This document shows, piece after piece, positions 34,424-48,173 of a DNA stretch of 51,090 bases. Each line of letters opens with the position of its first letter. Within the stretch, counting starts at the first letter, position 1. Source of the stretch: an uncultured Dehalococcoidales bacterium (GTDB taxonomy: Bacteria; Chloroflexota; Dehalococcoidia; Dehalococcoidales; UBA2162); contig CAZCMK010000007.1 of the NCBI GenBank assembly GCA_964499775.1, positions 1 through 51,090 on the forward strand, given 5' to 3'. A program made the translations under genes and the position numbers. The notes under the pieces were generated by a model. That model had not been told where the DNA came from, searched no databases, and saw nothing but the letters and a program-made list of their open reading frames with translations.

Positions 34424-34439
34424 AAGGGAGGGTATCATT

Positions 34440-34704: not shown

Positions 34705-35652
34705 ATGGCAGTAGAGATTCCTAAGACATCATATAGCGGGAAAATCAAAGGGGTAACACTGGGTAAAGGAAGTAATGCTGTGCCGGTTGGTGGGGAGACA
34801 TCTTACCCCTTTTATCTTTTTGAAGGCGAGATGCCCAACATACCAAGAATCGCCATGGAGGTCTGGGACTGCCCGCCCGATAACTGGGCGGAAGCAGCCC
34901 TTGAGCCTTTTGCCGGGGTGACGGATGACCCTGTCGCCTGGGCTAAGAAATGCATCGGTGATTATGGTGCCGAGATGATTGCCCTGGAGATGATAAGTAC
35001 AGACCCTAACGGGATGGACCGGCCGGCCGATGAAGCCGCCGCAATAGTCAAGAAGGTATCGGATGCTATAGATGTCCCGTTGATTGTCTGGGGCACGGCA
35101 GACCACGATAAAGATACCGAGGTCCTGAGACAGGCGGCAGAGCTGGTACAGGATAAAAGCCTGATTATGGGACCGGTCGAAGAAGCGGACCATAAGAGGA
35201 TAGGGGCAGCGGCTCTTGCTTATCACCATACCGTGATTGCCTCGACCCCTATAGATATAAACCTTGCCAAACAGCTTAATATATTGCTGGGGAATCTGGG
35301 AGTGACCGACGAATCGATTATTATTGACCCTACGGTCAGCGGTATCGGTTACGGTATCGAGTACTGCTATTCGGTAATGGAGAGGATGAGGATGGCAGGG
35401 TTGACGCAGCAGGATGATAAACTCCAGTTTCCGATAATCTGTAACATATCCAAAGAAACGTGGAAGACAAAGGAAGCGAAGCTATCTGAAGAAGAAGACC
35501 CGACTCTGGGAAATCCTAAGAATAGAGGCATTTTACTGGAAGCAATGTCGGCTACCGTGTTATTACTGGCCGGTGGCGATATTCTAATAATGAGACATCC
35601 TGAAGCAATAAAACTGGTTAAGGAAATGATAGCCGAATTAACGGCTTCATAG
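34705..35652 (+). CDS. acsD: corrinoid/iron-sulfur protein small subunit (CdhD/AcsD)
   Basis: MAVEIPKTSYSGKIKGVTLG...VGGETSYPFYLFEG matches the delta-subunit N-terminus. ATG 34705 follows AAGGGAGGT. 315 aa. Confidence 0.9.
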   Translation: MAVEIPKTSYSGKIKGVTLGKGSNAVPVGGETSYPFYLFEGEMPNIPRIAMEVWDCPPDNWAEAALEPFAGVTDDPVAWAKKCIGDYGAEMIALEMISTDPNGMDRPADEAAAIVKKVSDAIDVPLIVWGTADHDKDTEVLRQAAELVQDKSLIMGPVEEADHKRIGAAALAYHHTVIASTPIDINLAKQLNILLGNLGVTDESIIIDPTVSGIGYGIEYCYSVMERMRMAGLTQQDDKLQFPIICNISKETWKTKEAKLSEEEDPTLGNPKNRGILLEAMSATVLLLAGGDILIMRHPEAIKLVKEMIAELTAS

Positions 35653-35671
35653 ATTAAGAATTGGGAGGAAG

Positions 35672-37654
35672 ATGAATAAAATGGCAGATAACGAGAATGA
35701 AGCAAAAAGTATCGACCAGGGTAGTGTGGAGCTGATAGAGAAGGCGATTAAAGACGGAGTTAATACCGTCTTCGAAAGGGCAGATATGATGAAGCCCTGC
35801 CCGATTGGTTCTGTCGGCAGTTGCTGTAAGAACTGCAGTATGGGGCCCTGCCGGGTACCTCTGGCTAAAGGTAAAGAGGAAACGCCGGAAGAGAAGCTGA
35901 AGAGACGGGGTATCTGCGGCGCTACCGCGGAGACTATCGCAGCTCGTAATTTCATCCGTATGGTTGCCGGCGGAGCGGCGGCTCACTCCGACCACGGACG
36001 GGGAGTAGCCGAGTTGTTTGTGGCGGTAGCGAAGGGAGAAGCCCCCGGATACGAGATTAAGGATGAGCAGAAACTGCTGCAACTGGCTCTGGACTGGGGT
36101 GTCGAGATTGGCGACCGTACCAACAATGAGATAGCCACCGATATCGGTAGAATCGCCCTGGCAGAGTTCGGCCAGCAGGAAGGTGAGGTTATAACCACAA
36201 GGAAGGCACCCCTGAAGCGCCAGGAGTTATGGCGCCAGCAGGGTGTCATGCCACGGGGTATAGATAGAGAAATTGTTGAAATAATGCACCGGACTCACAT
36301 AGGTGTTGACCAGGACTACCGGAACCTGCTCAAACAGGGTGTCAGGGCATCGATAGCCGACGGCTGGGGCGGCAGCATGATTGCCACCGAGCTTCAGGAT
36401 ATCCTGTTTGGTACTCCGGCGCCTGTTATGGGTACGGCAAACCTGGGCGTACTTAGCGAGGACGAGGTGAACCTTGTCATTCACGGCCATGAGCCGTTGC
36501 TGTCTGAGATGATTGTAGCGGTTTCTCAGGAACCGGAGATGGTGGAACTGGCAAAATCGAAGGGTGCCAAGGGAATTAACCTTTCGGGTATGTGCTGCAC
36601 CGCCAATGAGATACTGATGCGTCACGGTGTGGGCATAGCCGGGAACTTCCTGCAGCAGGAGCTGGCGATAGTAACCGGAGCCGTAGAAGCTATGGTGGTG
36701 GATGTCCAGTGCATTATGCAGTCCATTACCACCGTAGCCGAGTGCTACCATACCAAGATTATCACTACTGCAGCCAAGGCAAAGATTCCCGGTGCTTTAC
36801 ATATTGAGTTTGACGAGCATAATGCCATAGAGTCAGCCCGGACTATAGTTAAGGCTGCTATTGAAAACTACCCCAATCGCAAAGGGAATATCTACATTCC
36901 TGATAATAAGACTGACCAGATTGCCGGTTTTAGCCACGAGACCATCAACTACCTCCTCGGCGGAGTGTTTCGTGCTTCCTACCGGCCGCTGAATGACAAT
37001 ATCATTAACGGTCGAATCAGGGGAGTAGCCGGTGTTGTCGGTTGCAACAATGCCCGGACCAAGCATAACGAAGGGCATGTAGCAATGGTTAAAGAGCTGA
37101 TAAAGAATGATGTACTTGTTATTACGACCGGCTGTAACGCAATCGCCTGTGCCGAAGCCGGACTGATGGTTCCAGAAGCGGCTAAGGAGTTCGCCGGTGA
37201 AGGGTTGGCTGAAGTCTGTGAGGCCGTGGGTATCCCGCCGGTACTGCACATGGGTTCATGTGTTGACAACAGTCGAATCCTGATAGCGGCTACTGCTATG
37301 GTTAAGGACGGTGGTCTAGGTGATGACATCAGTGACCTGCCGGTAGCAGGTGCCGCACCTGAGTGGATGAGCGAGAAAGCAATCTCAATCGGCCAGTACT
37401 TTGTCGCCTCGGGTGTGTACACCGTATTCGGCGTAACCTGGCCCACCACCGGCAGCAAAGAAGTAACCGACTTCCTGTTCAAAGAGATGGAAGAGCTGTA
37501 CGGCGGGATGTGGGACTTCGAGCCGGACCCGATTGAAGGTGCGAAAAAGATGATTGCTCATATCGATAAGAAGCGTAAAGCTCTGGGTATCGATAAAGCG
37601 AGAGAAAGAATCCTTTATGACATGGAGATGCGGCGGGAGCTGGATAAGGTGTAA
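35672..37654 (+). CDS. acsA: anaerobic Ni-CO dehydrogenase catalytic subunit (CODH component of CODH/ACS)
   Basis: 660 aa. N-terminal cluster motifs CPIGSVGSCCKNCSMGPCRV, and overall CooS/AcsA length and pattern. Confidence 0.95.
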   Translation: MNKMADNENEAKSIDQGSVELIEKAIKDGVNTVFERADMMKPCPIGSVGSCCKNCSMGPCRVPLAKGKEETPEEKLKRRGICGATAETIAARNFIRMVAGGAAAHSDHGRGVAELFVAVAKGEAPGYEIKDEQKLLQLALDWGVEIGDRTNNEIATDIGRIALAEFGQQEGEVITTRKAPLKRQELWRQQGVMPRGIDREIVEIMHRTHIGVDQDYRNLLKQGVRASIADGWGGSMIATELQDILFGTPAPVMGTANLGVLSEDEVNLVIHGHEPLLSEMIVAVSQEPEMVELAKSKGAKGINLSGMCCTANEILMRHGVGIAGNFLQQELAIVTGAVEAMVVDVQCIMQSITTVAECYHTKIITTAAKAKIPGALHIEFDEHNAIESARTIVKAAIENYPNRKGNIYIPDNKTDQIAGFSHETINYLLGGVFRASYRPLNDNIINGRIRGVAGVVGCNNARTKHNEGHVAMVKELIKNDVLVITTGCNAIACAEAGLMVPEAAKEFAGEGLAEVCEAVGIPPVLHMGSCVDNSRILIAATAMVKDGGLGDDISDLPVAGAAPEWMSEKAISIGQYFVASGVYTVFGVTWPTTGSKEVTDFLFKEMEELYGGMWDFEPDPIEGAKKMIAHIDKKRKALGIDKARERILYDMEMRRELDKV

Positions 37655-37695
37655 ATGTCATGACAGATATAGAAAAAAGGGAGGGCTAAAGAGAA

Positions 37696-39903
37696 ATGTC
37701 TAAAATTATCGCTTCAGCGGCTATCAGAGGGGCTCATAAAATCGTAGGCCAGGCTGAAGAAACGTGGCAGAAAGCTATGGATAAATACGGGGCTAACGAG
37801 CCTGTCGGTTTTCCCAATACTGCTTACTATCTGCCGGTCATTTACGGAATGCTGGGCATACCGGTAGAGAAACTCGGTGACATGGAGCAGGTGCTTGAAC
37901 GGTGTAAGGCATTATTACCTCCACCGGTTAGAGAGACCCATCCGCTTCCTTATCTGGCACCGGCTCTCGATGCTGGAATGGCAACCTTTTTTGCCGAGGA
38001 AATCATTGAGGCAATAAGGTATCTGGAGGAACCGGATTTCTATACCAAGCAGGAAGATATTACCGAAGATAATATCTGGCTTGGCGCCGCTGACGATGTC
38101 ATCCTCAGAAAGAGGGGTATTGAGTTTGTTGACGGTACTGCGCCTGGATTTGCTGCCATCCTTGGCGCCGCGCCGACCAGCGAAATTGCGGCGCAGATTG
38201 CCCAGGAATTACAGCAGAAGAACCTGTATGTCTTTATGGGGGGTGAGTATAACGGAAAGAGATTTGCCGATCAGCTTTTGGAAGCCGGTGTGCAAATCGG
38301 ATGGCCGACTCGTCTGGTTTCTTTCGGCCCCGATACCAGTGCTACAGTATTTGCTGCTGGCTTTGCCATCAGAGCGGGTTTTTCATTCGGTGGCATTGGG
38401 CCCGGAGAGTACAGGAAACATCTTATATATAACAAGGACCGTATCTTTGCATTCGCGCTACCACTGGGATATGTTACTGATGAATGGTATGCTAACGCCG
38501 CCGGAGCAATAAATTTTGGTTTTCCCGTGATAGCTGATACCCCTATACCAGAAGTCTTACCTACAGGAATCTGTACCTACGAGCATGTTGTCTCGAATAT
38601 CCCCCATGACCAGCTTGTCGCCAAGGCGGTAGAGGTCAGAGGCCTGAAGGTTTCGGTGTCCGAGGTTCCAGTCCCAGTGGCTTTCGGTCCTGCCTTTGAG
38701 GGAGAAAGGGTTCGTGGCGATGATATCTATCTTGAATGCGGTGGTGGCAGGACTGCAATGGTGGAATGGGTTACCAGCAAGCAGATGGATGAAGTAGAGG
38801 ACGGGAAGATTGAAGTGATTGGGCCCGAGGTAACCGATGTTGAAGCCGGTTCCAAATTACCTCTGGCTATAGTCGTTGAAGTTGCCGGTAGAGAGATGGA
38901 GGAGGACTATGAGCCTATCCTTGAGCGGCAGATTCACCATCTTATTAACTACGCTCAGGGTTCGATGCACATCGGGCAGAGGGATATAGCTTGGTGGCGA
39001 TTAAGCAAACAAGCAGTGGGGAAAGGCTTCAAGATATCTCATATCGGTACCCTTCTCCATGCCAAGCTTCATCAGGATTTTGGTAGAATATTCGATAAGA
39101 TGCAGGTCATGTTATACACTGAAGAAGACAAGGTGCAGAATATAATAGAGCAGGCGAAGGCCACTTATGCCGCTCGAGATGCCAGAATCGAGGGTATGAC
39201 CGATGAAACCACTGACACATACTACTCTTGTACCCTGTGTCAGTCCTTTGCACCAAACCATGTTTGTGTAATAACCCCGGAAAAAACCGGGCTTTGTGGT
39301 TCATATAACTGGATGGACTGTAAGGCTGCCTACGAAATCAATCCTACCGGACCCAATCAACCGGTGGAGAAAGGTGAAATCCTTGATGCCAAGTTCGGGC
39401 AGTGGAAGGGAGTCAATGAGTTTATCTACAAGGCTTCCCGTGGTGCCCTGGACCATTATAACATGTACAGTATAGTGAATGACCCATGGACAACCTGCGG
39501 CTGCTGCGAGTGTGTTGCTGCCATCCTGCCTATGTGTAACGGCGTAATGACGGTAAACCGGGAGTTTACCGATATGACCCCTTGCGGGATGAAGTTCAGT
39601 ACCCTTGCCGGAACTGTAGGTGGTGGTATCAGTACCCCCGGCTTTATCGGGCATGGCAAGTATAATATTTGCCAGAAGAAATTCATTAGTGCTGACGGTG
39701 GTCTTTTGAGAATGGTCTGGATGCCCAAGAGTCTTAAGGAGGAAATCGGCGACCGTATTAAGGCAAGGGGTGAGGAACTGGGTATTCCCGACCTGCTGGA
39801 CATGATTGCCGATGAGACAGTGGGCGTTACCGAGGAAGAGATTCTTCCGTTCCTTGAGGAGAAAGGTCACCCTGCTATTACCATGGACCCATTACTAGGA
39901 TAG
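37696..39903 (+). CDS. acsB: CO-methylating acetyl-CoA synthase
   Basis: 735 aa. A-cluster region ...SCTLCQSFAPNHVCVITPE... and the C-G-C motif in TTCGCCECV. SD GGGAGGG. Confidence 0.95.
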   Translation: MSKIIASAAIRGAHKIVGQAEETWQKAMDKYGANEPVGFPNTAYYLPVIYGMLGIPVEKLGDMEQVLERCKALLPPPVRETHPLPYLAPALDAGMATFFAEEIIEAIRYLEEPDFYTKQEDITEDNIWLGAADDVILRKRGIEFVDGTAPGFAAILGAAPTSEIAAQIAQELQQKNLYVFMGGEYNGKRFADQLLEAGVQIGWPTRLVSFGPDTSATVFAAGFAIRAGFSFGGIGPGEYRKHLIYNKDRIFAFALPLGYVTDEWYANAAGAINFGFPVIADTPIPEVLPTGICTYEHVVSNIPHDQLVAKAVEVRGLKVSVSEVPVPVAFGPAFEGERVRGDDIYLECGGGRTAMVEWVTSKQMDEVEDGKIEVIGPEVTDVEAGSKLPLAIVVEVAGREMEEDYEPILERQIHHLINYAQGSMHIGQRDIAWWRLSKQAVGKGFKISHIGTLLHAKLHQDFGRIFDKMQVMLYTEEDKVQNIIEQAKATYAARDARIEGMTDETTDTYYSCTLCQSFAPNHVCVITPEKTGLCGSYNWMDCKAAYEINPTGPNQPVEKGEILDAKFGQWKGVNEFIYKASRGALDHYNMYSIVNDPWTTCGCCECVAAILPMCNGVMTVNREFTDMTPCGMKFSTLAGTVGGGISTPGFIGHGKYNICQKKFISADGGLLRMVWMPKSLKEEIGDRIKARGEELGIPDLLDMIADETVGVTEEEILPFLEEKGHPAITMDPLLG

Positions 39904-39993
39904 AGAAATAAGTTTCCGGGCTGAGGTTGGATGGATGTTGAAGATGTCACATTTATCCCTGTCATAAATGATACCCGGAGAGGGAGTACGAGA

Positions 39994-41340
39994 ATGGCGC
40001 TTACCGGAATAGAGATTTTTAAGTTGTTGCCCAAGACAAACTGTAAGGAGTGTGGCGTGCCCACCTGCCTTGCCTTTGCCATGGCTCTAGCTGCTGGGAA
40101 AGCAGAATTAAGTGATTGCCCCTATGTTTCCGAGGAAGCAAAGGAAAAACTGCAGGAAGCATCAGCACCTCCAATCAGGGCAGTAACTATTGGCGTTGGT
40201 GATACGGCAGTGAAGGCCGGCGGCGAGACGGTGATGTTCCGCCATGAAAAAAGATTTGAAAACCCTCCCGGTCTGGCTATTCTTGTGAAAGATAGCATGG
40301 ATGATGCCGAGGTTGATGCCAGGCTGAAGAAATTCAAAGAGCTGCAGTATGAAAGGGTCGGTCTTCATCTCCGCCCTGAGCTGGTAGCGGTAAAGGACGA
40401 ATCCGGTGATGCCGCTAAATTCGAGGCACTCGCTGGTAAAATAGTCCAGAACAGTGATGCGGGTATTATCCTGTTGAGCGAGAACCCTGATATACTGGCA
40501 GCCGGACTGAAAGCCTGCGCCGATAAAAAACCGCTGCTTTACGCCGCTACCAAGGACAACCTTGATAAAGTGGCTGCCCTGGCAAAAGAGAATTCTTGTC
40601 CGGTAGCGGTGAAAGGTTCCAATCTGGACGAAGCTGCTGAATTGACTGCCAAACTAGGTGAGGCAGGGATAAATGATATTGTTATCGATTCCGGGGCTAG
40701 AACGGTAAAGCAGGCGTTTCAGGACCAGGTAATCATCAGGGGTTCCGCTCTGATGAATAAATACAAACCGCTGGGTTTTCCCACGATTTCCATTCCTTCG
40801 GAAATGACCGATAACCCGATGAAGGAAGCGGTGATAGCTTCTATGCTTATAGCAAAATACGCCGGTATAGTGGTGCTCTCCGATTTTCAGGGAGAGAGCC
40901 TGTTCCCTCTGCTTGTGGAGAGGCTCAACATTTACACCGACCCTCAGCGCCCGTTAGCTACCACCGAGGGAATATATGAAATTGGTACGCCCGGCGAAAA
41001 TTCTCCGGTGCTCATTACGACTAATTTCTCGCTGACATACTTTCTTGTCTCCGGTGAAATAGAATCAAGCAGGATTCCGAGCTGGCTTCTGGTTATGGAT
41101 ACCGAGGGGCTTTCAGTAATGACTGCCTGGGCAGCAGGCAAGTTTGTAGCTGATGCTATCGCGCCATTCGTCAAGAAGAGTGGTATTGAAGACAAGGTTA
41201 AACATCGCAAGTTAATAATACCGGGATACGCCGCTGCCGAAAGTGGCGGTCTGGAAGAGGAGTTGCCTGGTTGGGAGGTTCTGGTTGGCCCAAGGGAAGG
41301 TTCGCAAATTACAGCTTATCTAAAAGGATGGAGTCCATAA
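39994..41340 (+). CDS. acsC: corrinoid/iron-sulfur protein large subunit (CdhE/AcsC)
   Basis: MALTGIEIFKLLPKTNCKECGVPTCLAFAMALA [4Fe-4S] N-terminus. ATG 39994 is preceded by GGAGAGGGAG. The ORF-track start at 39931 adds 21 unlikely residues. Confidence 0.92.
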   Translation: MALTGIEIFKLLPKTNCKECGVPTCLAFAMALAAGKAELSDCPYVSEEAKEKLQEASAPPIRAVTIGVGDTAVKAGGETVMFRHEKRFENPPGLAILVKDSMDDAEVDARLKKFKELQYERVGLHLRPELVAVKDESGDAAKFEALAGKIVQNSDAGIILLSENPDILAAGLKACADKKPLLYAATKDNLDKVAALAKENSCPVAVKGSNLDEAAELTAKLGEAGINDIVIDSGARTVKQAFQDQVIIRGSALMNKYKPLGFPTISIPSEMTDNPMKEAVIASMLIAKYAGIVVLSDFQGESLFPLLVERLNIYTDPQRPLATTEGIYEIGTPGENSPVLITTNFSLTYFLVSGEIESSRIPSWLLVMDTEGLSVMTAWAAGKFVADAIAPFVKKSGIEDKVKHRKLIIPGYAAAESGGLEEELPGWEVLVGPREGSQITAYLKGWSP

Positions 41341-41350: not shown

Positions 41351-42226
41351 ATGATCCTTATTGCGGAAAGCATTAATATTATGTCCAAGACTCTCGGTCC
41401 GGCAATGAGGGAAAGGAACCCTACACCTATTCAGGAAATGGCTAAAGCTGAAGCTGAAGCCGGGGCGGACTACCTTGATTTGAACATCGGCCCCGCCCGG
41501 AGAAACGGGGACGAGTTGATGGATTGGGTAGTAAATACCGTCCAGGAGGTAACAGACCTCCCACTCTCGCTTGATACAACCAATCCGGTGGCTATGGAGG
41601 CTGGACTAAAGGTGTGCAAGGGCAAGGTGTTGATTAATTCTATCTCCCTGGTAAGGATGGAAGAAGAGTTGCCATTGGTTAAGAAATATGATGGTGACTT
41701 TATCGGGCTGCTATGGGGAAGAGAGGGAATGCCAAGGGATGCTGATGAGAGAGCTATGATAGCCGCCGAAATTATGACTATAGCCAGTGAGATGGGTATC
41801 CCTAATGAGCGTATCTGGTTCGACCCCATTGTTACCCCGGTAGTTAATATCGAAGCAAATCAATCCAAGCCGTGTATGGAGTTTATGAGCACACTCGAGG
41901 ATATTGTTCCAGGGTCTAGATCTGCGGTTGGATTATCTAATGTCTCTAATGGTGCCCCCACTCCCCTCAGGCCTATGCTTAATCGAACTTACGTGATTAT
42001 GCTGATGAAGTATGGGCTGTACTCAGCAATCGTCGATATCTTTGATACGGAGCTGGTAAAGATAGCCAAGGGTGAGATGCCGGAAATCGTAGACGTCGTT
42101 CACAGAGCTATGGACGGCGAGATAACAGACCTTTCGTCATTGAACGAAAAGGAAGCGCAATACGCTAAAACGGTAAGGGTTCTTACCGGCGACTCGTTAT
42201 ACTCTCACTCATGGCTCGAAATTTAA
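41351..42226 (+). CDS. acsE: methyl-THF:corrinoid/iron-sulfur protein methyltransferase
   Basis: Pterin-binding (DHPS-like) barrel, MILIAESINIMSK...YLDLNIGP...SLDT. SD AAGGAGGT. Confidence 0.9.
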   Translation: MILIAESINIMSKTLGPAMRERNPTPIQEMAKAEAEAGADYLDLNIGPARRNGDELMDWVVNTVQEVTDLPLSLDTTNPVAMEAGLKVCKGKVLINSISLVRMEEELPLVKKYDGDFIGLLWGREGMPRDADERAMIAAEIMTIASEMGIPNERIWFDPIVTPVVNIEANQSKPCMEFMSTLEDIVPGSRSAVGLSNVSNGAPTPLRPMLNRTYVIMLMKYGLYSAIVDIFDTELVKIAKGEMPEIVDVVHRAMDGEITDLSSLNEKEAQYAKTVRVLTGDSLYSHSWLEI

Positions 42227-42260: not shown

Positions 42261-43148
42261 ATGGTTCAAGAAGTACCAGTAGTGTGGTTAGCAGCGTCTT
42301 CTTGCACCGGTTGCAGCATATCGCTGCTGAATTCAGCCAGCCCTTCCATCAAGAATGTGCTGGTTGATGAGGTAATCCCCGGGGTGCACATTAACCTGCG
42401 CTTTCATCAGACGGTGATGGCTGGAAACGGTGAACAGGCGATTCAGATTCTGGAAGATACTGCCAGAGAGAAGAAGGGGAGCTATGTTCTGGCGGTTGAC
42501 GGCTCTATCCCTTCAGGCGACACGGCGGGATACTGTGTTATGGGAGAGAGAAATGGCCGCCCGGTAACTCTGGAAGAACGGCTGGAAGAACTGGCAAAAG
42601 ACGCGCTGGTAATCCTGGCGGTTGGTACATGTGCTTCCTTCGGTGGAATCCCGGCGGCTGCACCTAATCCCAGCAACGCCCGGCCGGTAAGGGAGTTACT
42701 CGAAGACAAGGGCATCGATAAGCCTCTGGTGAATATACCGGGCTGCCCTCCACATCCGGACTGGATTGTCGGTACCATAGCCAGTATTTTGCTGAACGGT
42801 TTGCCCAAAGCTGAGGACCTTGATGATAATCTCAGACCGCTGGCTTTCTACGGCAAACTGATACATGAGAATTGTCCCCGCCGAGCTTATTTCGATGAAG
42901 GCAAATTTGCCAAAAAACCCGGTGACGAGGGGTGTTTATACGAACTCGGTTGTAAAGGTCCGATAACCTATGCGGACTGTCCTATACGACGCTGGAATAA
43001 CGGCACGAACTGGGTTATAGGTGCCGGGTCGCCCTGCCTGGGGTGTACCCAGCCCGAATTTCCAAATCTGCCTTTTTACCAGAAGCTGGTTGACGTTGAA
43101 CTGCCGGTAATCGGTGCTTACTGGACGGGTGAAGAGGAGGACGAATAG
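42261..43148 (+). CDS. [NiFe]-hydrogenase small subunit, no twin-arginine signal (cytoplasmic)
   Basis: Proximal-cluster motifs SSCTGCSIS, GTCASFGG, GCPPHP. Distal and medial pattern HENC...GC-x5-C-x8-C...C-x2-C (CLYELGCKGPITYADCP...SPCLGC). The N-terminus MVQEVPVVWL lacks RRxFxK. Confidence 0.92.
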   Translation: MVQEVPVVWLAASSCTGCSISLLNSASPSIKNVLVDEVIPGVHINLRFHQTVMAGNGEQAIQILEDTAREKKGSYVLAVDGSIPSGDTAGYCVMGERNGRPVTLEERLEELAKDALVILAVGTCASFGGIPAAAPNPSNARPVRELLEDKGIDKPLVNIPGCPPHPDWIVGTIASILLNGLPKAEDLDDNLRPLAFYGKLIHENCPRRAYFDEGKFAKKPGDEGCLYELGCKGPITYADCPIRRWNNGTNWVIGAGSPCLGCTQPEFPNLPFYQKLVDVELPVIGAYWTGEEEDE

Positions 43149-44662
43149 TGACGAAGATAGTCATTGACCCGATGACCAGAATCGAAGGTCATCTTAAGAT
43201 TGAGACAACGGTTGAGGACGGAGTCGTAAAAGACGCTCGCAGCACCGGTAATCTGTTCCGGGGCATTGAGCTTATCCTGCGGGGTAGGGACCCGAGAGAC
43301 GCTCAGGTCATAACCCAGCGGATATGCGGAGTTTGCCCGCAGTCGCACGGCGTAGCAGCGGCTTTAAACCTGGATAGCGCATTCGGTATCGCCGGTCAGA
43401 TACCGGATAACGGGCGGATAATCCGCAACCTTATCCAGGGAGCCCACGTTGTTCAGGACCATATCCTGCATTTCTATCACCTGGCTGCTCTCGATTACGT
43501 GGATGTGACCGATGTGGCGAAATATGATGGAAAAGATTCCGAGTTGAACTCGGTTAAAACATTTATTGAACGCGGCGAACTGGGTCCTTTTGTACCCCGG
43601 TACGAGGGCGACTACAGACTGCCGCCGGAAGTGAACCAGATGGCGACTGCCCACTATATACAGGCGCTTGAAATCAGGCGTATCGGACATGAGATGGTCA
43701 GTATCTTCAGCGGTAAAATACCCCATAGTGTCGGCATTATGCCCGGCGGAGCCACCTGTACCCCCTCGATAGATATGATAACTTCCTACCTGTGGAAACT
43801 GAGAACAGTGCAGGACTTCATCAATAACGTATATATTCCGGATGTCCTGGCGGTAGCCGGAGCCTATCCCGACTATACTGAGATCGGGACTGGATGTAAA
43901 AATCTCCTGTCTTACGGGCAATATGACCTCGAGGGCGGAGAGCCGGATGTCACGAAACAGAAGAGATTGTATATACCCGGGGTTACTTCTGCCGACCTGA
44001 AACCGGGGAAACTGGATGTCGATAAGATAGCCGAATATGTAACGCATTCCTGGTACGAAGACTATCCGGGAGCGAAGCATCCTTCCGTGGGAGAGACCAA
44101 ACCGAACCAGGACAAAGAAGGAGCTTATTCCTGGGTTAAATCTCCGCGGTATGATGGCAAGGTGTACGAAGTCGGACCCCTGGCGAGGCTGGCTGTTAAT
44201 TATGCCAACGGTGACCCTGTGGTGAAAGAGCTAGTAGATTCTGCTCTTGCCCAGTTGAAGGCTCCGCTTGCGGCTCTCTTCTCGGTTATGGGCAGGCACC
44301 TGGCACGGGCTTTATGCGCCAAGCTGACCGCTGATAATCTTGAGAAATGGGTACTGGAAGTGAAACCCGGAGAGCCTACTTATATCGACAATGAAATCCC
44401 CGAAGAAGCTACCGGCTTCGGCCTGACGGAAGCCGCCCGCGGCGCTCTGGGACACTGGATAGAGATAAAAGGCTACAAGGTAGATAACTACCAGTGTGTT
44501 GTGCCCACCACCTGGAATGCTTCACCCAGGGATGAAAACGGAAATCCGGGTCCCATCGAGCAGGCGATAATCGGGACTAGAATAAGAGACAAAGATAATC
44601 CGTATGAGATAGTACGCATCGTTCGTTCCTTTGACCCCTGTCTGGCCTGCGCTATCCACTAG
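43148..44662 (+). CDS. [NiFe]-hydrogenase large subunit lacking a C-terminal extension
   Basis: L1 RIEGH...RICGVCPQSH, L2 DPCLACAIH directly followed by TAG. The GTG start overlaps the small-subunit stop (TAGTG). 504 aa. Confidence 0.92.
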   Translation: MTKIVIDPMTRIEGHLKIETTVEDGVVKDARSTGNLFRGIELILRGRDPRDAQVITQRICGVCPQSHGVAAALNLDSAFGIAGQIPDNGRIIRNLIQGAHVVQDHILHFYHLAALDYVDVTDVAKYDGKDSELNSVKTFIERGELGPFVPRYEGDYRLPPEVNQMATAHYIQALEIRRIGHEMVSIFSGKIPHSVGIMPGGATCTPSIDMITSYLWKLRTVQDFINNVYIPDVLAVAGAYPDYTEIGTGCKNLLSYGQYDLEGGEPDVTKQKRLYIPGVTSADLKPGKLDVDKIAEYVTHSWYEDYPGAKHPSVGETKPNQDKEGAYSWVKSPRYDGKVYEVGPLARLAVNYANGDPVVKELVDSALAQLKAPLAALFSVMGRHLARALCAKLTADNLEKWVLEVKPGEPTYIDNEIPEEATGFGLTEAARGALGHWIEIKGYKVDNYQCVVPTTWNASPRDENGNPGPIEQAIIGTRIRDKDNPYEIVRIVRSFDPCLACAIH

Positions 44663-44722
44663 ATATTCAGGTGATGGTGTCAGGATGAGTTAATGAGCTG
44701 TCCGGACTTTTAAGGAGGAAAG

Positions 44723-45409
44723 ATGATTCTTTCGAGACAAAAACCACTGGAAGAGATACTGGAATACCTGAATGGAGAGAAGAAGGTCTTCCTGTTAGGT
44801 TGTAACGGTTGCGCCCAGGCTTCCGGTACCGGTGGTCCCGAGCAGGTGGAGGAGATGAAAGCCAGGCTGGAAGAAGCCGGCAAGGAAGTTACCGGAAGCG
44901 ACGTGATTGATTTTCTCTGTAATAAAGCCCTGATAAAGTCGAGGCTGAGAAATAAGATAAAAGAAATCGAGGCAGCCGATTCTATACTGGTTATGACGTG
45001 TGGTATCGGTATCCAGGCGACAGCCGCCTCAGTCAATAAGGTCTGCCACCCCGCCTGTGATACGGTCAACCTGGGTGGCAGCCGGGGAGAATGGGTAGGG
45101 AGCGAGAGATGTATGGAGTGCGGCGAATGCCTGCTTGAATACACCGGAGGAATATGTCCTTTGACTGCCTGCACCAAGGGTCTAACAAATGGCCAGTGTG
45201 GAGGCGCATCTCATGGGAAATGCGAACTCAGCCCGGAAAGAGACTGCGGCTGGGAACTGATTTATAAGAGGCTGAAAGACCTGAACAGGCTGGATATACT
45301 GAAGAAATTTATTGCACCCAAAGACTACAGCAAGATGGTGCCTGAACCCGGATTGATGTCCACATCCCGCTGGGCGCTGGAAAAGACTGACGCAAAAGAA
45401 GGGTCCTGA
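44723..45409 (+). CDS. metV: methylene-THF reductase Fe-S/zinc-ribbon subunit MetV (MTHFR_C domain)
   Basis: Cys-rich CMECGECLLEYTGGICPLTACTKGLTNGQCGG and N-terminal GCNGCAQ. SD AAGGAGGAAAG. Confidence 0.85.
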   Translation: MILSRQKPLEEILEYLNGEKKVFLLGCNGCAQASGTGGPEQVEEMKARLEEAGKEVTGSDVIDFLCNKALIKSRLRNKIKEIEAADSILVMTCGIGIQATAASVNKVCHPACDTVNLGGSRGEWVGSERCMECGECLLEYTGGICPLTACTKGLTNGQCGGASHGKCELSPERDCGWELIYKRLKDLNRLDILKKFIAPKDYSKMVPEPGLMSTSRWALEKTDAKEGS

Positions 45410-45410
45410 T

Positions 45411-46286
45411 ATGAGCTTGCGTTCAACCTTAGAAAAAGGAGAATTCGCTATTACCTGTGAAGTTGGCCCGCTTAAGGGGACCGATACAGTAGAAATAGCT
45501 GAAGCAGCCGAACTCCTGCGGGGAAGAGTCCACGCGGCTAATGTTACCGACCAGCAGAGCTCGGTAATGAGGCTGGGCTCAATGGTTACCAGCTATCTGA
45601 TAAAAGAAAAAGGACTCGAACCGATATTCCAGATGACATGCAGGGACAGAAACCGGATAGCGTTACAATCGGACCTTCTGAGTGCCAGCGTACTGGGAAT
45701 CGAAAACGTGCTGGCTATCACCGGCGACCTCCCTTCCCTGGGTGACCATCCCCAGGCGATGGCTGTTTATGACCTGGATTCGGTACAGCTCCTCTGGGTA
45801 ATAGGACGGTTGAATGAAGGTTACGATATGGTGGGTAACGAGCTTAAAGGTAAGACCAGCTTTTTCCCGGGAGCGGTGGTTAATCCCGGAGCGGATACCG
45901 ATACTGCTCTCGATTTCCAGATTCTAAAATTGGAGAAAAAAATAGAAGCCGGTGCCAGGTTTATTCAAACCCAGGCAATTTATGACGTAGACTCATTTGC
46001 TAGATTTATGAAGAGGGTGGAGGGATTCAAAGTACCTATCCTGGCCGGTATAATACCTTTGAAATCAGTCGGTATGGCACGCTTCATGAATAAGAGTGTT
46101 GCCGGTGTCTTCGTACCGGAAGAACTGATTAAAAAGATGGCTGACGCCGAGAATAAGGCCGAGACCGGGATACAGATTGCAGCAGACCTGATTAAAGGGC
46201 TTAAGGATGTCTGCCGGGGCGTGCATATTATGGCTATCGGCTGGGAAAAAAGAGTGCCCCAGATACTCGAGGCCGCCGGACTTTAG
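45411..46286 (+). CDS. metF: methylenetetrahydrofolate reductase
   Basis: 291 aa. FAITCEVGP, HAANVTDQ, MTCRDRNRIALQSDLL, IQTQAIYD. Start sits in a TGATATG junction with the metV stop. Confidence 0.92.
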   Translation: MSLRSTLEKGEFAITCEVGPLKGTDTVEIAEAAELLRGRVHAANVTDQQSSVMRLGSMVTSYLIKEKGLEPIFQMTCRDRNRIALQSDLLSASVLGIENVLAITGDLPSLGDHPQAMAVYDLDSVQLLWVIGRLNEGYDMVGNELKGKTSFFPGAVVNPGADTDTALDFQILKLEKKIEAGARFIQTQAIYDVDSFARFMKRVEGFKVPILAGIIPLKSVGMARFMNKSVAGVFVPEELIKKMADAENKAETGIQIAADLIKGLKDVCRGVHIMAIGWEKRVPQILEAAGL

Positions 46287-46303: not shown

Positions 46304-46966
46304 ATGGAAAATAAACGTATTAAAGTACCAGAGTACAAGAATTACGAATATTCCCTCGAGCAAGCCTATAATATTGTCCGTGATAAACTGCTGAAGATAG
46401 AAGACATCGAACAGCAGTGTAAAGAAAGTGACAGCCAGTACCGGCAGGCAGGTTCATCTAAAATAATCGGTATCCGGTACCTGAGCAGGCTGTATGAGCT
46501 GGTACTGCCGGATATCGAGATTACACCGGCGGACTCCACCGAGGAAGTCCCTTTAAGAGAAAAAGTACTCATCCTCCACTACTTTACACAGGCAAAGGGC
46601 ACCCCGCTTTCCGGAGAGCTAATCACTTTCAGAGAACTGCCGGAAGGAAAGGTTTATTTGCCCACGTTTCTAAAAAGAACCGTTAAACCTCTTGAAGATA
46701 ACTTCGGCAAAGAACCTCACCGCCTTGTGGAAGTCAGCGAGGCGCTGGGTGGTATAGAGACGGATTATGGGGATACGGCGGTAACACTCAATCCTTTCAG
46801 CCGCGTTCCTTTAACTATAGTCCTCTGGCACGGTGATGAAGAGTTCGAACCCAAGGGGAACATTATTTTCGATGCCAGTATAACCGACTACCTCTCGACG
46901 GAAGATATAACAGTGGTTAGCGAGATTATTGCCTGGAAACTGGTAAGGCGATTGCGAGAGGTCTGA
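46304..46966 (+). CDS. conserved hypothetical protein, DUF3786-like
   Basis: 220 aa, starting 17 nt after metF. The C-terminal pattern (VTLNPFSRVPLTIVLWHGDEEFEPKGNIIFDASITDYLSTEDI) resembles DUF3786 as I remember it. The family call is tentative. Confidence 0.6.
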   Translation: MENKRIKVPEYKNYEYSLEQAYNIVRDKLLKIEDIEQQCKESDSQYRQAGSSKIIGIRYLSRLYELVLPDIEITPADSTEEVPLREKVLILHYFTQAKGTPLSGELITFRELPEGKVYLPTFLKRTVKPLEDNFGKEPHRLVEVSEALGGIETDYGDTAVTLNPFSRVPLTIVLWHGDEEFEPKGNIIFDASITDYLSTEDITVVSEIIAWKLVRRLREV

Positions 46967-47074: not shown

Positions 47075-47680
47075 ATGGAAATAACATCGATTATTCTGGC
47101 CGGCGGGAAAAATCTGCGGCTGGGAAGAAGCAAAGCCCTGGAAGTTATCAATGGTAAGAGTCTCGTTGAACGGGTTATAGAGCGGCTCGCACCGCTTTCC
47201 AGCCGGATTCTGGTTGTAACCTCTGGGGAACAGTTCGAACTCCCGGGTAACCATCCGGCGGAAATATTTGAAGATGTATATCCTGAAAGGGGACCTATCG
47301 GAGGCTTGTACACCGGCTTGATGGCTTCGAAATCGCAGACGAATATCGTCGTCGCCTGTGATATGCCCTTTCTGAATACGGAGTTGTTGAGTTACATGGT
47401 CGGTCTATCGAGTGACTTCGATGCGGTTGTGCCACGGGTGGAAAAAGGGATGATAGAGCCGCTTCACGCCGTGTATTCCAGTAATTGCCTGAGTACAATT
47501 GGAAAACAAATGGAGAATAACCATTTGAGTATCCATGCTTTTCTCGATAAGGTACATGTCAGGTATATAGAGCGGACGGAAAGCGAAAAACTGGACCCGC
47601 AGCTATTATCCTTCTTTAACATAAACTACCAGTCAGACCTCGACCGGGCTATCGACCTGGCCGAGAAATACGGGATTTAA
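47075..47680 (+). CDS. mobA: molybdenum cofactor guanylyltransferase
   Basis: MEITSIILAGGKNLRLGRSKAL... MobA-like NTP-transferase fold. 201 aa. Confidence 0.85.
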   Translation: MEITSIILAGGKNLRLGRSKALEVINGKSLVERVIERLAPLSSRILVVTSGEQFELPGNHPAEIFEDVYPERGPIGGLYTGLMASKSQTNIVVACDMPFLNTELLSYMVGLSSDFDAVVPRVEKGMIEPLHAVYSSNCLSTIGKQMENNHLSIHAFLDKVHVRYIERTESEKLDPQLLSFFNINYQSDLDRAIDLAEKYGI

Positions 47681-47742: not shown

Positions 47743-47771
47743 TTGACAGTTGTCCAATATATCGCTATAAT
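47743..47771 (+). promoter_or_regulatory. perfect sigma70 consensus promoter (TTGACA-N17-TATAAT)
   Basis: TTGACA at 47743-47748, 17-nt spacer, TATAAT at 47766-47771, 49 nt before the TTG at 47820. Confidence 0.6.
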
Positions 47772-47819: not shown

Positions 47820-48173
47820 TTGGTGGGAGATAAGCCTTTCTTCGGGTCTATAATCACCTATACCTTGATTAAAGCAGACCTCGAAGTAAACGGGGTTTCA
47901 GATTACTCCGAAGCTGTATCGAAGTTGGGTGAGTCCAGACACGACATTGCTATAATAAAACTGGATACGCTATCGGCAGACGACCTGGAAGCTTGTTCTT
48001 TTTTACATAACAAATTTAATATCCCTGTTATTATACTGGGAAAGGAACAGGGTGATTGGGTCTGGGAAAAAGCCGTAGAAGCGGGGGTCGACCATTACGT
48101 ACAGGAGCCAGTTAGCGGAGTCGAATTAGCAGCAAGAATCAGGGCTATATTAAGGCGTTACAAAAAAGACTGA
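47820..48173 (+). CDS. degenerate receiver (CheY-like) domain protein, possibly a pseudo-receiver or pseudogene
   Basis: Receiver-like layout: ...LLVGDKPFF.., IAIIKLD (acceptor Asp kept), VIILG (T/S replaced by G), YVQEP (K replaced by E). The only starts are TTG 47820 or GTG 47823, which cut off strand beta-1 (VIYSVLL is encoded upstream in frame, after TGA 47781). Confidence 0.45.
   Translation: MVGDKPFFGSIITYTLIKADLEVNGVSDYSEAVSKLGESRHDIAIIKLDTLSADDLEACSFLHNKFNIPVIILGKEQGDWVWEKAVEAGVDHYVQEPVSGVELAARIRAILRRYKKD

Follow-up and report, generated by a model that had tools for sequence, protein, structure and literature searches.

A [NiFe] hydrogenase encoded with MetVF: a candidate soluble H2:methylene-tetrahydrofolate oxidoreductase

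In an uncultured Dehalococcoidales bacterium, the genes for a [NiFe] hydrogenase lie between an acsE-like gene and metVF, which encode a methylene-tetrahydrofolate (methylene-THF) reductase. This arrangement raises the question of whether the hydrogenase passes electrons from H2 directly to the reductase, as a preliminary description of the locus had proposed. The window, that is, the whole stretch of DNA analyzed, spans 51,090 nucleotides (contig CAZCMK010000007.1 of assembly GCA_964499775.1) and includes the following features.

29924-41340, + strand: Wood-Ljungdahl genes 5' of acsE, namely cooC, fhs, cooC, folD, acsD, acsA (CODH), acsB (ACS) and acsC
41351-42226, + strand: acsE-like gene, predicted methyl-THF:corrinoid/Fe-S protein methyltransferase (PF00809; NF005719 at 223 bits, below the 259-bit cutoff)
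42261-43148, + strand: hydS, [NiFe]-hydrogenase small subunit, 295 aa (PF01058 and PF14720)
43148-44662, + strand: hydL, [NiFe]-hydrogenase large subunit, GTG start, 504 aa (PF00374, E 5e-163; NF033181)
44663-44722, + strand: hydL/metV spacer, 60 nt, with the metV Shine-Dalgarno site AAGGAGGA
44723-45409, + strand: metV, Fe-S subunit of methylene-THF reductase, 228 aa (PF12225, E 4e-31)
45411-46286, + strand: metF, flavin-binding catalytic subunit of methylene-THF reductase, 291 aa (PF02219, E 2e-44, full length)
46304-46966, + strand: DUF3786 gene, starting 17 nt past metF (PF12654, E 7e-49)
47820-48173: receiver-only response-regulator ORF, the sole signaling gene among the annotated ORFs of the window

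The genes at 29924-41340 were identified through the Pfam families CbiA, FTHFS, THF_DHG_CYH, CdhD, Prismane, CdhC/ACS_CODH_B_C and CdhD+FeS, and the module lies within a full Wood-Ljungdahl cluster. As read from the sequence, the acsE stop (TAA) is followed by a 34-nt gap with AAGAGGTG ahead of the hydS ATG, hydS and hydL overlap in TAGTG with GAGGAGGA 5' of the hydL start, the hydL stop is TAG, with the spacer and its Shine-Dalgarno site ahead of the metV ATG, and metV and metF meet in TGATATG. The five genes from acsE to metF are thus co-directional and closely spaced, with Shine-Dalgarno sites. A consensus scan detected no promoter-like or terminator-like sites on the + strand within the 34-nt and 60-nt gaps; it returned weak intragenic matches alone, in about the number expected from shuffled sequence. 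Among the long ORFs of the window annotated by Pfam, Hdr, MvhD, RnfC, diaphorase and cytochrome b were all absent, as was any histidine kinase; the scan covered ORFs of 150 aa or longer in the first 36 kb and another ten further downstream, with four ORFs lacking a Pfam match, whereas ORFs past 48.2 kb were read only. On these points the preliminary description was accurate throughout: its coordinates, strands, spacings and both junctions are exact, and the Shine-Dalgarno sites, the uninterrupted gaps and, among the annotated ORFs, the missing partner genes that it reported were all found as described.

The arrangement is not peculiar to this genome. We found 80 related loci by HydL, with identities from 91% down to 62%, in Dehalococcoidales, Gaiellales/Actinomycetota, Syntrophaceae/Desulfobacterales/Desulfatiglandales and one Firmicutes metagenome-assembled genome (MAG). 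One locus ends at a contig end; in the 79 with downstream sequence, the order hydS-hydL-metV-metF is kept without exception (79/79), with all four genes on one strand, and two further Firmicutes loci, retrieved separately, show the same order. Such recurrence of the four genes in one order, at each related locus that we examined, goes far beyond what chance would produce. When the ORFs of these loci were clustered, hydS, hydL, metV and metF were the sole universally conserved neighbors. The preliminary description had singled out the synteny acsE-hydSL-metVF; the hydSL-metVF part recurs in four phyla, but acsE does not belong to the conserved unit. The flanks vary: acsE precedes hydS in only about 15 of the 80 loci, all from close Dehalococcoidales relatives of the window, and the DUF3786 gene follows metF in 14, all acs-linked and from Dehalococcoidales.

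The slot between hydrogenase structural genes and the maturation protease gene is usually held by a cytochrome b subunit. In Desulfobacterota and Firmicutes, genes for a HycI-type maturation protease and hyp genes come after metF. Lying there between structural and maturation genes, metVF sits in the position of the electron-acceptor subunit of a hyaABC-D-type operon.

The four genes have also been inherited together. Pairwise distances of the hydrogenase subunits correlate with those of the MetVF subunits (r ~0.75, a value reached in 0 of 500 permutations). For all four proteins, the Actinomycetota copies are nearer to the window than the deep Dehalococcoidales copies, a pattern that fits transfer of the four genes as a unit. 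With dN/dS of 0.05-0.10 for each gene (relative to locus L001), all four are under purifying selection.

What kind of hydrogenase is this? HydL matches NF033181 at 710 bits (cutoff 600 bits), and among solved structures it is most similar to 4kl8 and 1cc1, which are [NiFeSe]/group 1 enzymes (E ~1e-132, compared to 1e-62 for group 2a and 1e-28 for group 3 structures). The alignment of HydS with the small subunit of the Desulfomicrobium baculatum [NiFeSe] enzyme begins at residue 6 of the mature protein (E 1.5e-78). By these matches the hydrogenase is a group 1 enzyme, nearest to the [NiFeSe]/1a type, and does not fall among the sensory enzymes. Synteny confined to this genome and a sensory affiliation of the hydrogenase had both been named in the preliminary description as grounds for rejecting its proposal; neither was observed. 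The active-site cysteines of HydL are in place (C60/C63 in RICGVC, C498/C501 in DPCLACAIH). In HydS, the ligands of three clusters, all invariant among 70 homologues, bear out the three-cluster relay that had been proposed: C15, C18, C124 and C162 for a predicted proximal 4Fe-4S cluster, C240, C259 and C262 for a medial three-Cys cluster probably of the 3Fe-4S type, and H202, C205, C225 and C231 for a distal His+3Cys cluster. The fourth medial position holds Val in the lineage of the window; HydS of Desulfobacterota and Firmicutes has Cys there, as in an all-4Fe-4S relay.

The closest relatives of both subunits, the periplasmic group 1a [NiFe]/[NiFeSe] hydrogenases (D. baculatum 1cc1/4kl8, Desulfovibrio vulgaris Hys), have the same active-site motifs, L1 and L2, as HydSL and a small subunit that likewise binds three clusters. 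In contrast to them, HydSL has no lipid tail and no selenocysteine, its partner genes are metVF rather than those for a cytochrome, and in the lineage of the window the medial cluster has three Cys and HydL has no cleavable extension. The twin-arginine (Tat) motif is absent from every HydS homologue of the clade, and HydS has no membrane anchor, whereas the nearest representatives outside the clade have Tat signals and membrane tails. The Tat-less HydS proteins form a single clade (184 of 200 bootstraps, 92%, neighbor joining). HydSL is accordingly a cytoplasmic enzyme.

The HydL of the window ends exactly at the His of the usual protease cleavage site, whereas in many homologues a C-terminal extension that can be cleaved off is retained, together with a protease dedicated to it. 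Alignment of the DNA with 519-aa homologues reveals a 1-nt deletion just past the His codon that creates an immediate stop (CAC-TAG compared to CAC CTA ATT...), and the remainder of the 60-nt spacer aligns with the extension codons. The hydL-metV gap measures 55-61 nt in truncated forms and 13-21 nt in 519-aa forms. The alignment indicates that the spacer is the decayed remnant of a 15-codon extension and that the truncation is a recent event. As the window contains neither an extension nor a hyp or protease gene, maturation of its HydL is putative, which we count against the reading as an H2:methylene-THF oxidoreductase.

The missing extension and Tat signal are also features of regulatory hydrogenases, and HydSL could conceivably be an H2 sensor like those of group 2b, controlling metVF or other genes. 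The receiver-domain ORF 1.5 kb downstream would fit such a role, as would the Cache-HAMP histidine kinase and response regulator encoded past metF in Syntrophaceae loci, and regulation is among the options raised for a related locus (PMC6295475). Nevertheless, we regard a sensor as extremely improbable. Group 2a matches are 70 orders of magnitude worse than the best group 1a/[NiFeSe] matches among solved structures, and none of the solved structures listed is labeled regulatory. The extension and protease are present in most of the clade, the shortened HydL of the window goes back to a recent 1-nt deletion, no kinase is conserved across the loci, and the active-site channel motif is CGVC, which we take to be the form of catalytic enzymes.

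On the acceptor side, MetV contains 13 invariant cysteines (73 homologues), of which C27, C30, C66 and C93 lie in an N-terminal alpha/beta domain and the other nine in a C-terminal Cys-rich DUF5981 domain. In the AF2 model, pLDDT is 70-96 for the N-domain and ~30 for the Cys-rich C-domain; a search for a solved structure homologous to MetV returned none. We also considered the N-domain as MvhD-like and found no support for this. MetF matches distant solved methylene-THF reductases at ~1e-10 to 1e-13. MetV and MetF of the module are 57-87% identical across phyla, compared to 36-54% where a locus has a second metVF copy alongside; the MetVF of the module forms a sequence group of its own.

Taken together, these results suggest an uncharacterized enzyme that couples a single Wood-Ljungdahl step directly to H2. 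HydSL-MetVF is most likely, in our assessment, a single soluble cytoplasmic four-subunit H2:methylene-THF oxidoreductase. This reading draws on the four-gene synteny, the operon slot of metVF, a cytoplasmic enzyme with a complete relay, co-inheritance, purifying selection, the distinct MetVF, the local operon features and the report that the module's enzyme is the only [NiFe] hydrogenase of 'Ca. Contubernalis alkaliaceticus' (PMC10608574). HydL would split H2 at its Ni-Fe site, and single electrons would run through the proximal, medial and distal clusters of HydS to the Fe-S clusters of MetV, which would replace the cytochrome b/c3 partner of periplasmic group 1 hydrogenases. MetV would then reduce the flavin of MetF, and hydride transfer would convert methylene-THF to methyl-THF, which would go on to AcsE and the corrinoid protein. 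Such a step would dispense with NAD(P)H, with ferredoxin and with bifurcation, and would conserve no energy. The association of the four proteins, the transfer from HydS to MetV and the direction of the reaction are predictions from sequence.

An alternative to a direct complex is a soluble carrier. Here the shared regulation of the genes would not extend to physical coupling of their products, and HydSL would reduce ferredoxin, flavodoxin or another carrier that in turn reduces MetVF. The plain MetFV of Clostridium ljungdahlii accepts electrons from reduced ferredoxin in vitro (PMC8515935), so that the physiological reductant of this type, presented as unresolved in the preliminary description, is no longer a fully open matter; electron carriers have also been studied in T. 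kivui (PMC8578170). No HydS-MetV or HydS-MetF fusion was found among ten long HydS-containing representatives, which counts against the complex, and non-hydrogenase paralogues of MetV share the Fe-S cysteines of its N-domain, leaving no obvious module-specific docking cluster. Yet the module has no conserved gene for ferredoxin or flavodoxin. A group 1 relay whose distal cluster has a His ligand normally works with a protein partner of its own that docks onto it; the genes for the usual partners, cytochrome b or c3, are absent, and metVF fills their slot. Moreover, by calculation, H2 at environmental pressure is too weak a donor for low-potential ferredoxin without bifurcation. We therefore consider a soluble carrier improbable.

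Energetics bear on the direct complex as well. Reduction of methylene-THF by H2 is exergonic (about -414 compared to -200 mV), as proposed earlier. At ~1 Pa H2 the calculated potential is ~-266 mV, at which this reduction is still exergonic although H2 has become too weak a donor for NAD+ or ferredoxin. For the organism of the window, we favor H2 uptake driving methylene-THF reduction, and the complex may be reversible.

The same complex could run in the opposite direction, as a methyl-THF:proton oxidoreductase that releases H2 in an oxidative pathway, such as syntrophic oxidation of acetate or methyl groups, pulled by H2-consuming partners. Dehalococcoidia have often been proposed to run the pathway in reverse. 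The two named carriers of the module, 'Ca. Syntrophonatronum acetioxidans' and 'Ca. Contubernalis alkaliaceticus', which are also the only ones treated in the literature, are syntrophic acetate oxidizers that run the pathway oxidatively, which counts against uptake, and H2 production is suggested in both papers (PMC6295475, PMC10608574). The loci of both hold the identical module, as do Syntrophaceae MAGs, and the fourth medial Cys of the Desulfobacterota and Firmicutes HydS resembles [NiFeSe] enzymes competent in H2 evolution. However, the free energy of H2 release, as calculated from standard potentials, is +41 kJ/mol at standard conditions, approaching zero only near or below 1 Pa H2 together with a methyl-/methylene-THF ratio of ~100:1. 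In the lineage of the window, the Val predicts a 3Fe-4S type medial cluster typical of uptake enzymes, and the gene cluster around the module, which includes fhs, folD and acs, is complete and of the reductive type. On balance, H2 release appears unlikely here.

A larger bifurcating or confurcating machine, in which a flavoprotein or ferredoxin encoded elsewhere would couple H2-dependent methylene-THF reduction to ferredoxin reduction in the manner of Mvh-Hdr, seems very unlikely. Directly 5' of hydS, 14-17 Dehalococcoidales loci have etfB, an etfA with a ferredoxin domain and a gene for a 655-aa Fer4+2xCCG (HdrD-like) protein, and bifurcation at the methylene-THF step is a long-standing hypothesis for acetogens (PMC5861303). 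But these genes are neither in the window nor conserved across the clade, the sole flavin, that of MetF, performs hydride transfer to folate and would be unsuited to bifurcate, and characterized MetFV enzymes do not bifurcate (PMC8515935).

Compared to known systems, the predicted complex resembles the acetogen MetFV enzymes in combining MetV (PF12225) and MetF (PF02219), in the metV-metF order and in its Wood-Ljungdahl cluster. It would differ from type II MetFV (C. ljungdahlii, T. kivui), type III MetFV-RnfC2 (A. woodii) and type IV MetFV-HdrABC-MvhD (M. thermoacetica, Sporomusa) in that electrons would enter through a [NiFe] hydrogenase and not through ferredoxin, RnfC2/NADH or Hdr-MvhD/NADH. 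HDCR, the hydrogen-dependent CO2 reductase of Acetobacterium woodii and Thermoanaerobacter kivui, likewise wires a hydrogenase through Fe-S subunits to a Wood-Ljungdahl reductase, with no soluble carrier (PMC7005907), but pairs an [FeFe] hydrogenase with formate dehydrogenase at the first pathway step, whereas the module has a [NiFe] enzyme at the methylene-THF step. The group 3c MvhAGD-HdrABC of methanogens is also a cytoplasmic [NiFe] hydrogenase docked on a cytoplasmic reductase, with single electrons passing through Fe-S clusters; however, it belongs to another hydrogenase group (E ~1e-28 to HydL, over the N-terminal region only) and, unlike HydSL-MetVF, needs MvhD and a bifurcating HdrA flavin. 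In Sporomusa ovata, the net reaction is likewise the reduction of methylene-THF by H2 (PMC9430772), but the electrons pass from a periplasmic cytochrome-b hydrogenase by way of quinone to Hdr-MvhD-MetVF, with energy conserved; HydSL-MetVF would be soluble, with four subunits and no membrane component.

The module has in part been reported before. The preliminary description knew of no methylene-THF reductase with a dedicated [NiFe]-hydrogenase partner, but the co-localization had been remarked in passing for a '[NiFe] hydrogenase 2' and MetF in the two syntrophic acetate oxidizers (PMC6295475, PMC10608574), where it was taken to indicate H2 production, regulation or NADH oxidation. A direct complex had not been proposed, one of the two papers placed the enzyme in 'group 5', and MetV went unrecognized by the authors. 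Our literature search found no paper on a HydSL-MetVF complex, its clade or its breadth. Both published loci are true members of the module, with HydL 74-75% identical to that of the Firmicutes locus L061 and the order hydS-hydL-metV-metF-hycI.

In the window, a Tat-less group 1 hydS-hydL pair, encoding the small and large subunits of a [NiFe] hydrogenase, lies directly before metV and metF, the genes for the Fe-S and flavin subunits of methylene-THF reductase (MTHFR), on the same strand. The gene coordinates and junctions of the preliminary description were borne out by the six-frame ORF list, by direct reading and by the Pfam/NCBIfam identities of the products:

41351-42226, + strand: acsE-like gene (six-frame ORF list, Pfam/NCBIfam)
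42261-43148, + strand: hydS (six-frame ORF list, Pfam/NCBIfam)
43148-44662, + strand: hydL, with a GTG start (six-frame ORF list, Pfam/NCBIfam)
44723-45409, + strand: metV, PF12225, Cys-rich, adjoining metF
45411-46286, + strand: metF, PF02219, with a full-length MTHFR domain (Pfam)
46304-46966, + strand: DUF3786 gene (six-frame ORF list)

The acsE-like gene and hydS are separated by 34 nt, with AAGAGGTG preceding hydS; hydS and hydL overlap in a TAGTG stop/start, with GAGGAGGA ahead of hydL; a 60-nt gap follows hydL, with AAGGAGGA ahead of metV; and metV and metF meet at TGATATG. A consensus scan of the 34-nt and 60-nt gaps detected no promoter-like or terminator-like site on the + strand, in line with the earlier reading that none interrupts the genes. 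Upstream of the acsE-like gene, on the same strand, Pfam identified cooC, fhs, cooC, folD, acsD, acsA, acsB and acsC, so that the window holds a nearly complete Wood-Ljungdahl cluster; the other long ORFs include housekeeping genes (secA, prs, glyA, RNase J, ftsK, uvrB, ruvABC and glmS; Pfam).

The adjoining metV and metF identify the reductase as MetFV-type. Among the long ORFs annotated with Pfam up to 48.2 kb, where the scan ended (four ORFs had no Pfam match), there is no Hdr, MvhD, RnfC, diaphorase, cytochrome b or histidine kinase gene, as had been noted from the sequence alone. The absence of hdrA, hdrB, hdrC and mvhD from the long ORFs beside metVF sets this reductase apart from type IV MTHFR, and the absence there of an rnfC-like or NuoF-type ORF sets it apart from type III (Pfam).

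Several further features of the window were recorded. After metF come the DUF3786 gene and a MobA-like molybdenum-cofactor guanylyltransferase gene (47075-47680), a pair that also follows the module in acs-linked Dehalococcoidales loci, with DUF3786 present in 14 loci. A perfect sigma-70 consensus (47743-47771; TTGACA, 17 nt, TATAAT; 12/12) lies 49 nt upstream of a 117-aa ORF (47820-48173) that consists of a response-regulator receiver domain alone, with no kinase nearby. On the − strand, an MvaI/BcnI-family restriction endonuclease and the adjoining N4/N6 DNA methylase make up a type II restriction-modification pair (1028-2748), and a 268-aa TIR-domain protein (15764-16570) is a possible defence gene.

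A HydL scan of 185,579 species genomes yielded 146 relatives, the best 80 of which (91% to 62% identity) were retained. These best 80 of 146 loci belong to Dehalococcoidales/Dehalococcoidia, Gaiellales and other Actinomycetota, Syntrophaceae, Desulfobacterales, Desulfatiglandales, other Thermodesulfobacteriota and one Firmicutes MAG. The order hydS-hydL-metV-metF, all on one strand, was found by tblastn in 79 of the 79 loci with downstream sequence among them (one locus ends at a contig edge and was left out) and also in the additional loci L081-L085. In an all-against-all clustering of the ORFs from the 80 loci, the only universally conserved neighbours were hydL (79 loci), metV (76), hydS (75) and metF (70), the counts below 79 being mostly due to contig ends or gaps. 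The upstream flanks vary by lineage: acsE and acs genes 5' of the module are confined to about 15 close Dehalococcoidales relatives; Actinomycetota and Syntrophaceae have folD or fhs-folD there, and 14-17 other Dehalococcoidales have etfB, etfA and an HdrD-like gene. Accordingly, the conserved unit is hydSL-metVF; of the acsE-hydSL-metVF unit originally proposed, the four-gene part recurs in relatives and acsE drops out.

The downstream flanks connect metVF to hydrogenase maturation. In Desulfobacterota, metF is followed by a HycI-type maturation protease, hypA, hypB and, later, hypD, and in the Firmicutes 'Ca. Syntrophonatronum acetioxidans' and 'Ca. Contubernalis alkaliaceticus', a divergent hypEDCFBA cluster is followed by hydS-hydL-metV-metF-hycI. 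In these orders, metVF has the structural genes of the hydrogenase on one side and that enzyme's own protease gene on the other, which is the slot filled by the cytochrome b electron acceptor in hyaABCD-type operons.

Some loci show additional arrangements. In L034, L038, L039 and about 14 other Dehalococcoidales, etfB, a ferredoxin-domain etfA and a 655-aa Fer4+2xCCG (HdrD-like) gene lie on the same strand, 1-5.5 kb upstream of hydS and directly 5' of hydSL-metVF; with the module, these genes may make up a larger unit for electron transfer or bifurcation in that lineage. In L055-L063 (Syntrophaceae and relatives), genes for a Cache-HAMP histidine kinase and a response regulator lie 3-7 kb downstream of hydL together with a second metV-metF pair that is divergent (39-53% identity), an arrangement that suggests two differently wired reductases under sensory control; the second MetV has Trp at the residue aligned with C30 and a Cys four residues further on. 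In some Dehalococcoidales, a tandem second metV (~39-46% identity) is inserted between the module metV and metF (L005, 12271-12912; L083, 10696-11373; L084; L019). Two loci, L004 and L018, carry the labels 'Acidobacteriota' and 'actinobacterium', respectively, and have a HydL 76-82% identical to that of the window; L004 groups with Dehalococcoidales loci by identity, which may reflect a binning error or a recent transfer.

HydL carries its Ni-Fe ligands in RICGVC (C60/C63) and DPCLACAIH (C498/C501), conforming to the RxCGxC and DPCxxCxxH patterns, and matches PF00374 (E 5e-163) and NCBIfam NF033181 (710 bits, cutoff 600). The nearest solved structures are periplasmic [NiFeSe] and group 1 [NiFe] enzymes (4kl8, 1cc1; E ~1e-132); matches to E. 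coli Hyd-1/Hyd-2 and Ralstonia MBH have E values of 1e-91 to 1e-106, those to group 2a Huc and group 1h 1e-62 and 1e-46, respectively, and those to group 3 ~1e-28, confined to the N-terminus. By its best PDB and NCBIfam matches, which serve as a proxy for placement among subgroups 1a-1l, the hydrogenase appears to be of the [NiFeSe]/1a type. Selenocysteine was not found at the third Ni ligand of the window HydL (the motif is DPC, with no in-frame TGA), and the window scores fall below the cutoffs of the [NiFeSe] models NF045518 and NF045520.

HydS retains the ligands of three clusters (proximal, 4 Cys; medial, 3 Cys; distal, His and 3 Cys); all 11 have counterparts in the aligned 1cc1/4kl8 small subunit and none varies among 70 homologues, so that the three-cluster relay of the preliminary description stands. 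The HydS start aligns with mature residue 6 of the Dm. baculatum small subunit, indicating that there is no signal peptide, and no twin-arginine (RR) motif of the kind that marks group 1 export occurs in any N-terminus of the module clade. Neither a cytochrome b/c3 gene nor that of another membrane or periplasmic acceptor was found in the scanned ORFs of the window or conserved in the 80 loci. Judged by these sequence features, the window hydrogenase is a catalytic-type group 1 enzyme that is cytoplasmic and has neither an anchor nor a cytochrome partner.

Most clade members have a HydL of 519 aa, with a 15-aa cleavable extension beyond the C-terminal His; HydL is 503-505 aa long in the window's subclade and in Actinomycetota. 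Comparison of window 44660-44722 across loci L001-L012 and L013-L054 revealed, in the window's subclade, a 1-nt deletion directly 3' of the His codon that creates an immediate stop (CAC-TAG vs CAC CTA ATT...). The shortening of the window HydL is a recent 1-nt deletion, and the 60-nt hydL-metV spacer is the decayed remnant of the extension. In Actinomycetota the spacer measures just 20-41 nt, pointing to a separate loss. The shortened window hydL is still under purifying selection (dN/dS 0.05).

These data bear on the possibility that the hydrogenase is an H2 sensor of group 2b. By sequence it is not, which answers the concern raised earlier that it might cluster with sensory enzymes: none of the solved structures matched by HydL is labelled as regulatory, and group 2a is matched at 1e-62 as against 1e-132 for group 1a. 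Moreover, no kinase gene is present in the scanned ORFs of the window or conserved in the 80 loci, and most members have kept the cleavable extension and the protease, the exception in the window being of recent origin. We therefore rejected or down-weighted the sensor interpretation.

A HydS search covering 1.84 billion 50%-identity representatives points to a single lineage. The nearest representatives outside the clade (<=56% identity) mostly carry RRxF or RKxF signals, and many have C-terminal membrane tails; one close Tat-less representative, P0241 (60% identity), has a C-terminus of the clade type. In a neighbour-joining tree, the module HydS sequences and P0241 formed one clade, free of any Tat-bearing representative, in 184 of 200 bootstraps. 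Pairwise distances of HydS/HydL and MetV/MetF are correlated (r ~0.75; 0 of 500 permutations as high), and all four genes evolve under dN/dS of 0.05-0.10 (window vs closest locus). In all four proteins, the Actinomycetota copies are nearer to the window than are deep Dehalococcoidales copies, consistent with the module having been transferred as a whole. Where a locus has a second metVF copy, that copy shares no more than 36-54% identity with the window's MetVF, which marks the hydrogenase-linked MetVF as a distinct group.

Among distant HydS homologues, P0349 (809 aa) appears to be a fusion of Pyr_redox_2, BFD-like 2Fe-2S and HydS domains, and P0306 (711 aa) a fusion of aldo/keto reductase and HydS; either group 1-like small subunits really are hard-wired in such alternative ways, or the fusions are artefacts of gene calling. 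Rosetta-stone fusions of HydS with MetV or MetF were sought and discarded, as ten long HydS-containing representatives (580-838 aa) have neither a MetV nor a MetF domain. The HydS tail DVELPVIGAYW was likewise dismissed as a MetV-docking motif: Tat-bearing relatives have the same LPxI/PG linker ahead of their membrane helix, so the tail is an ancestral linker remaining since loss of the anchor and no evidence of docking.

MetV has 13 invariant Cys, four in an N-terminal alpha/beta domain and nine in a DUF5981 domain, which would suffice for at least two, and possibly three, Fe-S clusters. We found no MetV among solved structures; an AF2 model was good for the N-domain and poor for the Cys-rich domain, and its Foldseek search gave no informative match. 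Despite a similar-looking motif, the N-domain could not be upheld as an MvhD/FlpD-like hydrogenase adaptor, there being no FlpD match in Pfam at E<=10 and only generic alpha/beta folds in Foldseek against PDB (best E 2e-3, Dph2). Nor are the four N-domain Cys module-specific Fe-S ligands, since they are common to most non-module MetV paralogues.

The simplest reading is a soluble HydSL-MetVF complex, in which H2 would be oxidised at the Ni-Fe site and electrons would pass through the three HydS clusters and the MetV clusters to the MetF flavin, which would reduce methylene-THF. The set of parts, their location and their genetic linkage are established; contact and electron transfer between HydSL and MetVF are inferred. 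The reaction from H2 (-414 mV) to methylene-THF (-200 mV) is exergonic, as previously stated, and by calculation stays downhill at 1 Pa H2: the H+/H2 couple is then at ~-266 mV, sufficient for methylene-THF and insufficient for NAD+ (-320 mV) or ferredoxin, so a direct link would suit low-H2 sediments. A soluble carrier could instead operate between HydSL and MetVF, but no carrier gene is conserved across the loci. A bifurcating super-complex would call for extra genes, but the candidates occur in only a subset of loci and are missing from the window; apart from the HdrD-like gene in that subset, the annotated recurrent neighbour families of the 80 loci include no Hdr-type gene, and bifurcation is unlikely in a four-subunit enzyme with a single hydride-transferring flavin. 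Both alternatives were rejected or down-weighted. The core interpretation, a combination of known kinds, namely a group 1 [NiFe] hydrogenase and a MetFV reductase, withstands the tests run here.

The module has been glimpsed before. The genome paper on 'Ca. Syntrophonatronum acetioxidans' reported '[NiFe] hydrogenase 2' genes, signal-less, that 'surround' a second metF, and suggested a role in producing H2 while acetate is oxidised syntrophically, or else in regulation (PMC6295475). For 'Ca. Contubernalis alkaliaceticus', the sole [NiFe] hydrogenase was described as 'co-localized with' metF, and NADH oxidation was proposed (PMC10608574). Both organisms carry the same module, with HydL 74-75% identical to that of the Firmicutes locus L061 and identical gene order; both papers overlooked MetV, and neither went on to a direct complex or to the clade and its breadth (PMC6295475, PMC10608574). 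Full-text literature searches found no paper describing a hydrogenase-MetVF complex, and Wood-Ljungdahl papers on Chloroflexi, Actinobacteria and SRB report Hdr-linked MetVF only. The earlier statement that an MTHFR with a dedicated [NiFe]-hydrogenase partner was not known to have been described thus holds for characterisation, in that we found no paper characterising the widespread module, but not for the neighbourhood, which is mentioned in passing for two genomes (PMC6295475, PMC10608574). The expressed signal-less [NiFe] hydrogenase of Syntrophaceticus schinkii was rejected as a cultured example, being a different enzyme with no metVF (SSCH_370002-6 encode a 255-aa small subunit, a 438-aa large subunit, the protease, hypA and hypB; paper supplement).

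Because the carriers noted in the literature oxidise acetate, the reverse direction, from methyl-THF to H2, is a serious rival. By calculation, it costs +41 kJ/mol under standard conditions and needs ~1 Pa H2 or less together with a high methyl-/methylene-THF ratio. The medial cluster of HydS differs between lineages in a way that may, only suggestively, reflect a catalytic bias toward uptake or evolution. In an alignment of 70 HydS sequences, Cys occupies the fourth medial-ligand position of [NiFeSe] enzymes in 19 of 19 Desulfobacterota and in L061, the Firmicutes MAG, for which a 4Fe-4S cluster as in those enzymes is predicted; 41 of 44 Dehalococcoidales and all 6 Actinomycetota have Val there, predicting 3Fe-4S. 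In the window, this position is Val252 (codon 43014-43016), so that the relay is predicted not to be all-4Fe-4S but to have a 3Fe-4S-type medial cluster.

Nowhere is the Wood-Ljungdahl pathway less settled than at the electron donor of MTHFR, which decides both the ATP yield of acetogenesis and the feasibility of syntrophic acetate oxidation. We give an even chance to the proposition that HydSL-MetVF is a fifth MTHFR type, a soluble enzyme directly and reversibly linking H2/H+ to methylene-/methyl-THF, carrier-free, of single origin and horizontally spread. If so, it would dispense with pyridine nucleotide, ferredoxin and bifurcation, and by hard-wiring a hydrogenase to MetVF it would solve the donor problem at the methylene-THF step in a new way, comparable to HDCR, which serves the CO2 step. 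In its single origin, a group 1 hydrogenase that had been exported would have shed its signal peptide and anchor and recruited MetVF as acceptor, and horizontal transfer would have carried the enzyme through Dehalococcoidales, Actinomycetota, Desulfobacterota and Firmicutes. To our knowledge, group 1 [NiFe] hydrogenases would thereby gain their first branch that is cytoplasmic and non-respiratory. Operation at H2 pressures too low for NAD+ or ferredoxin would fit the sediment and subsurface lineages that carry the module. The enzyme would account for the handling of the -200 mV step at very low H2 in low-energy subsurface Wood-Ljungdahl organisms, and for electron venting from methyl-THF by some syntrophic acetate oxidisers. 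We expect that metagenome surveys would class the module hydrogenases as 1a, in which case many sediment 'group 1a respiratory uptake hydrogenases' in such censuses may be cytoplasmic carbon-pathway enzymes. The module is abundant: HydL shares at least 76% identity with more than 120 protein clusters (formed at 90% identity) and is homologous to thousands more. 'Ca. Contubernalis alkaliaceticus' is kept in co-culture and its genome is closed. It has the module as its sole [NiFe] hydrogenase (PMC10608574), which makes the hypothesis directly testable in this organism.
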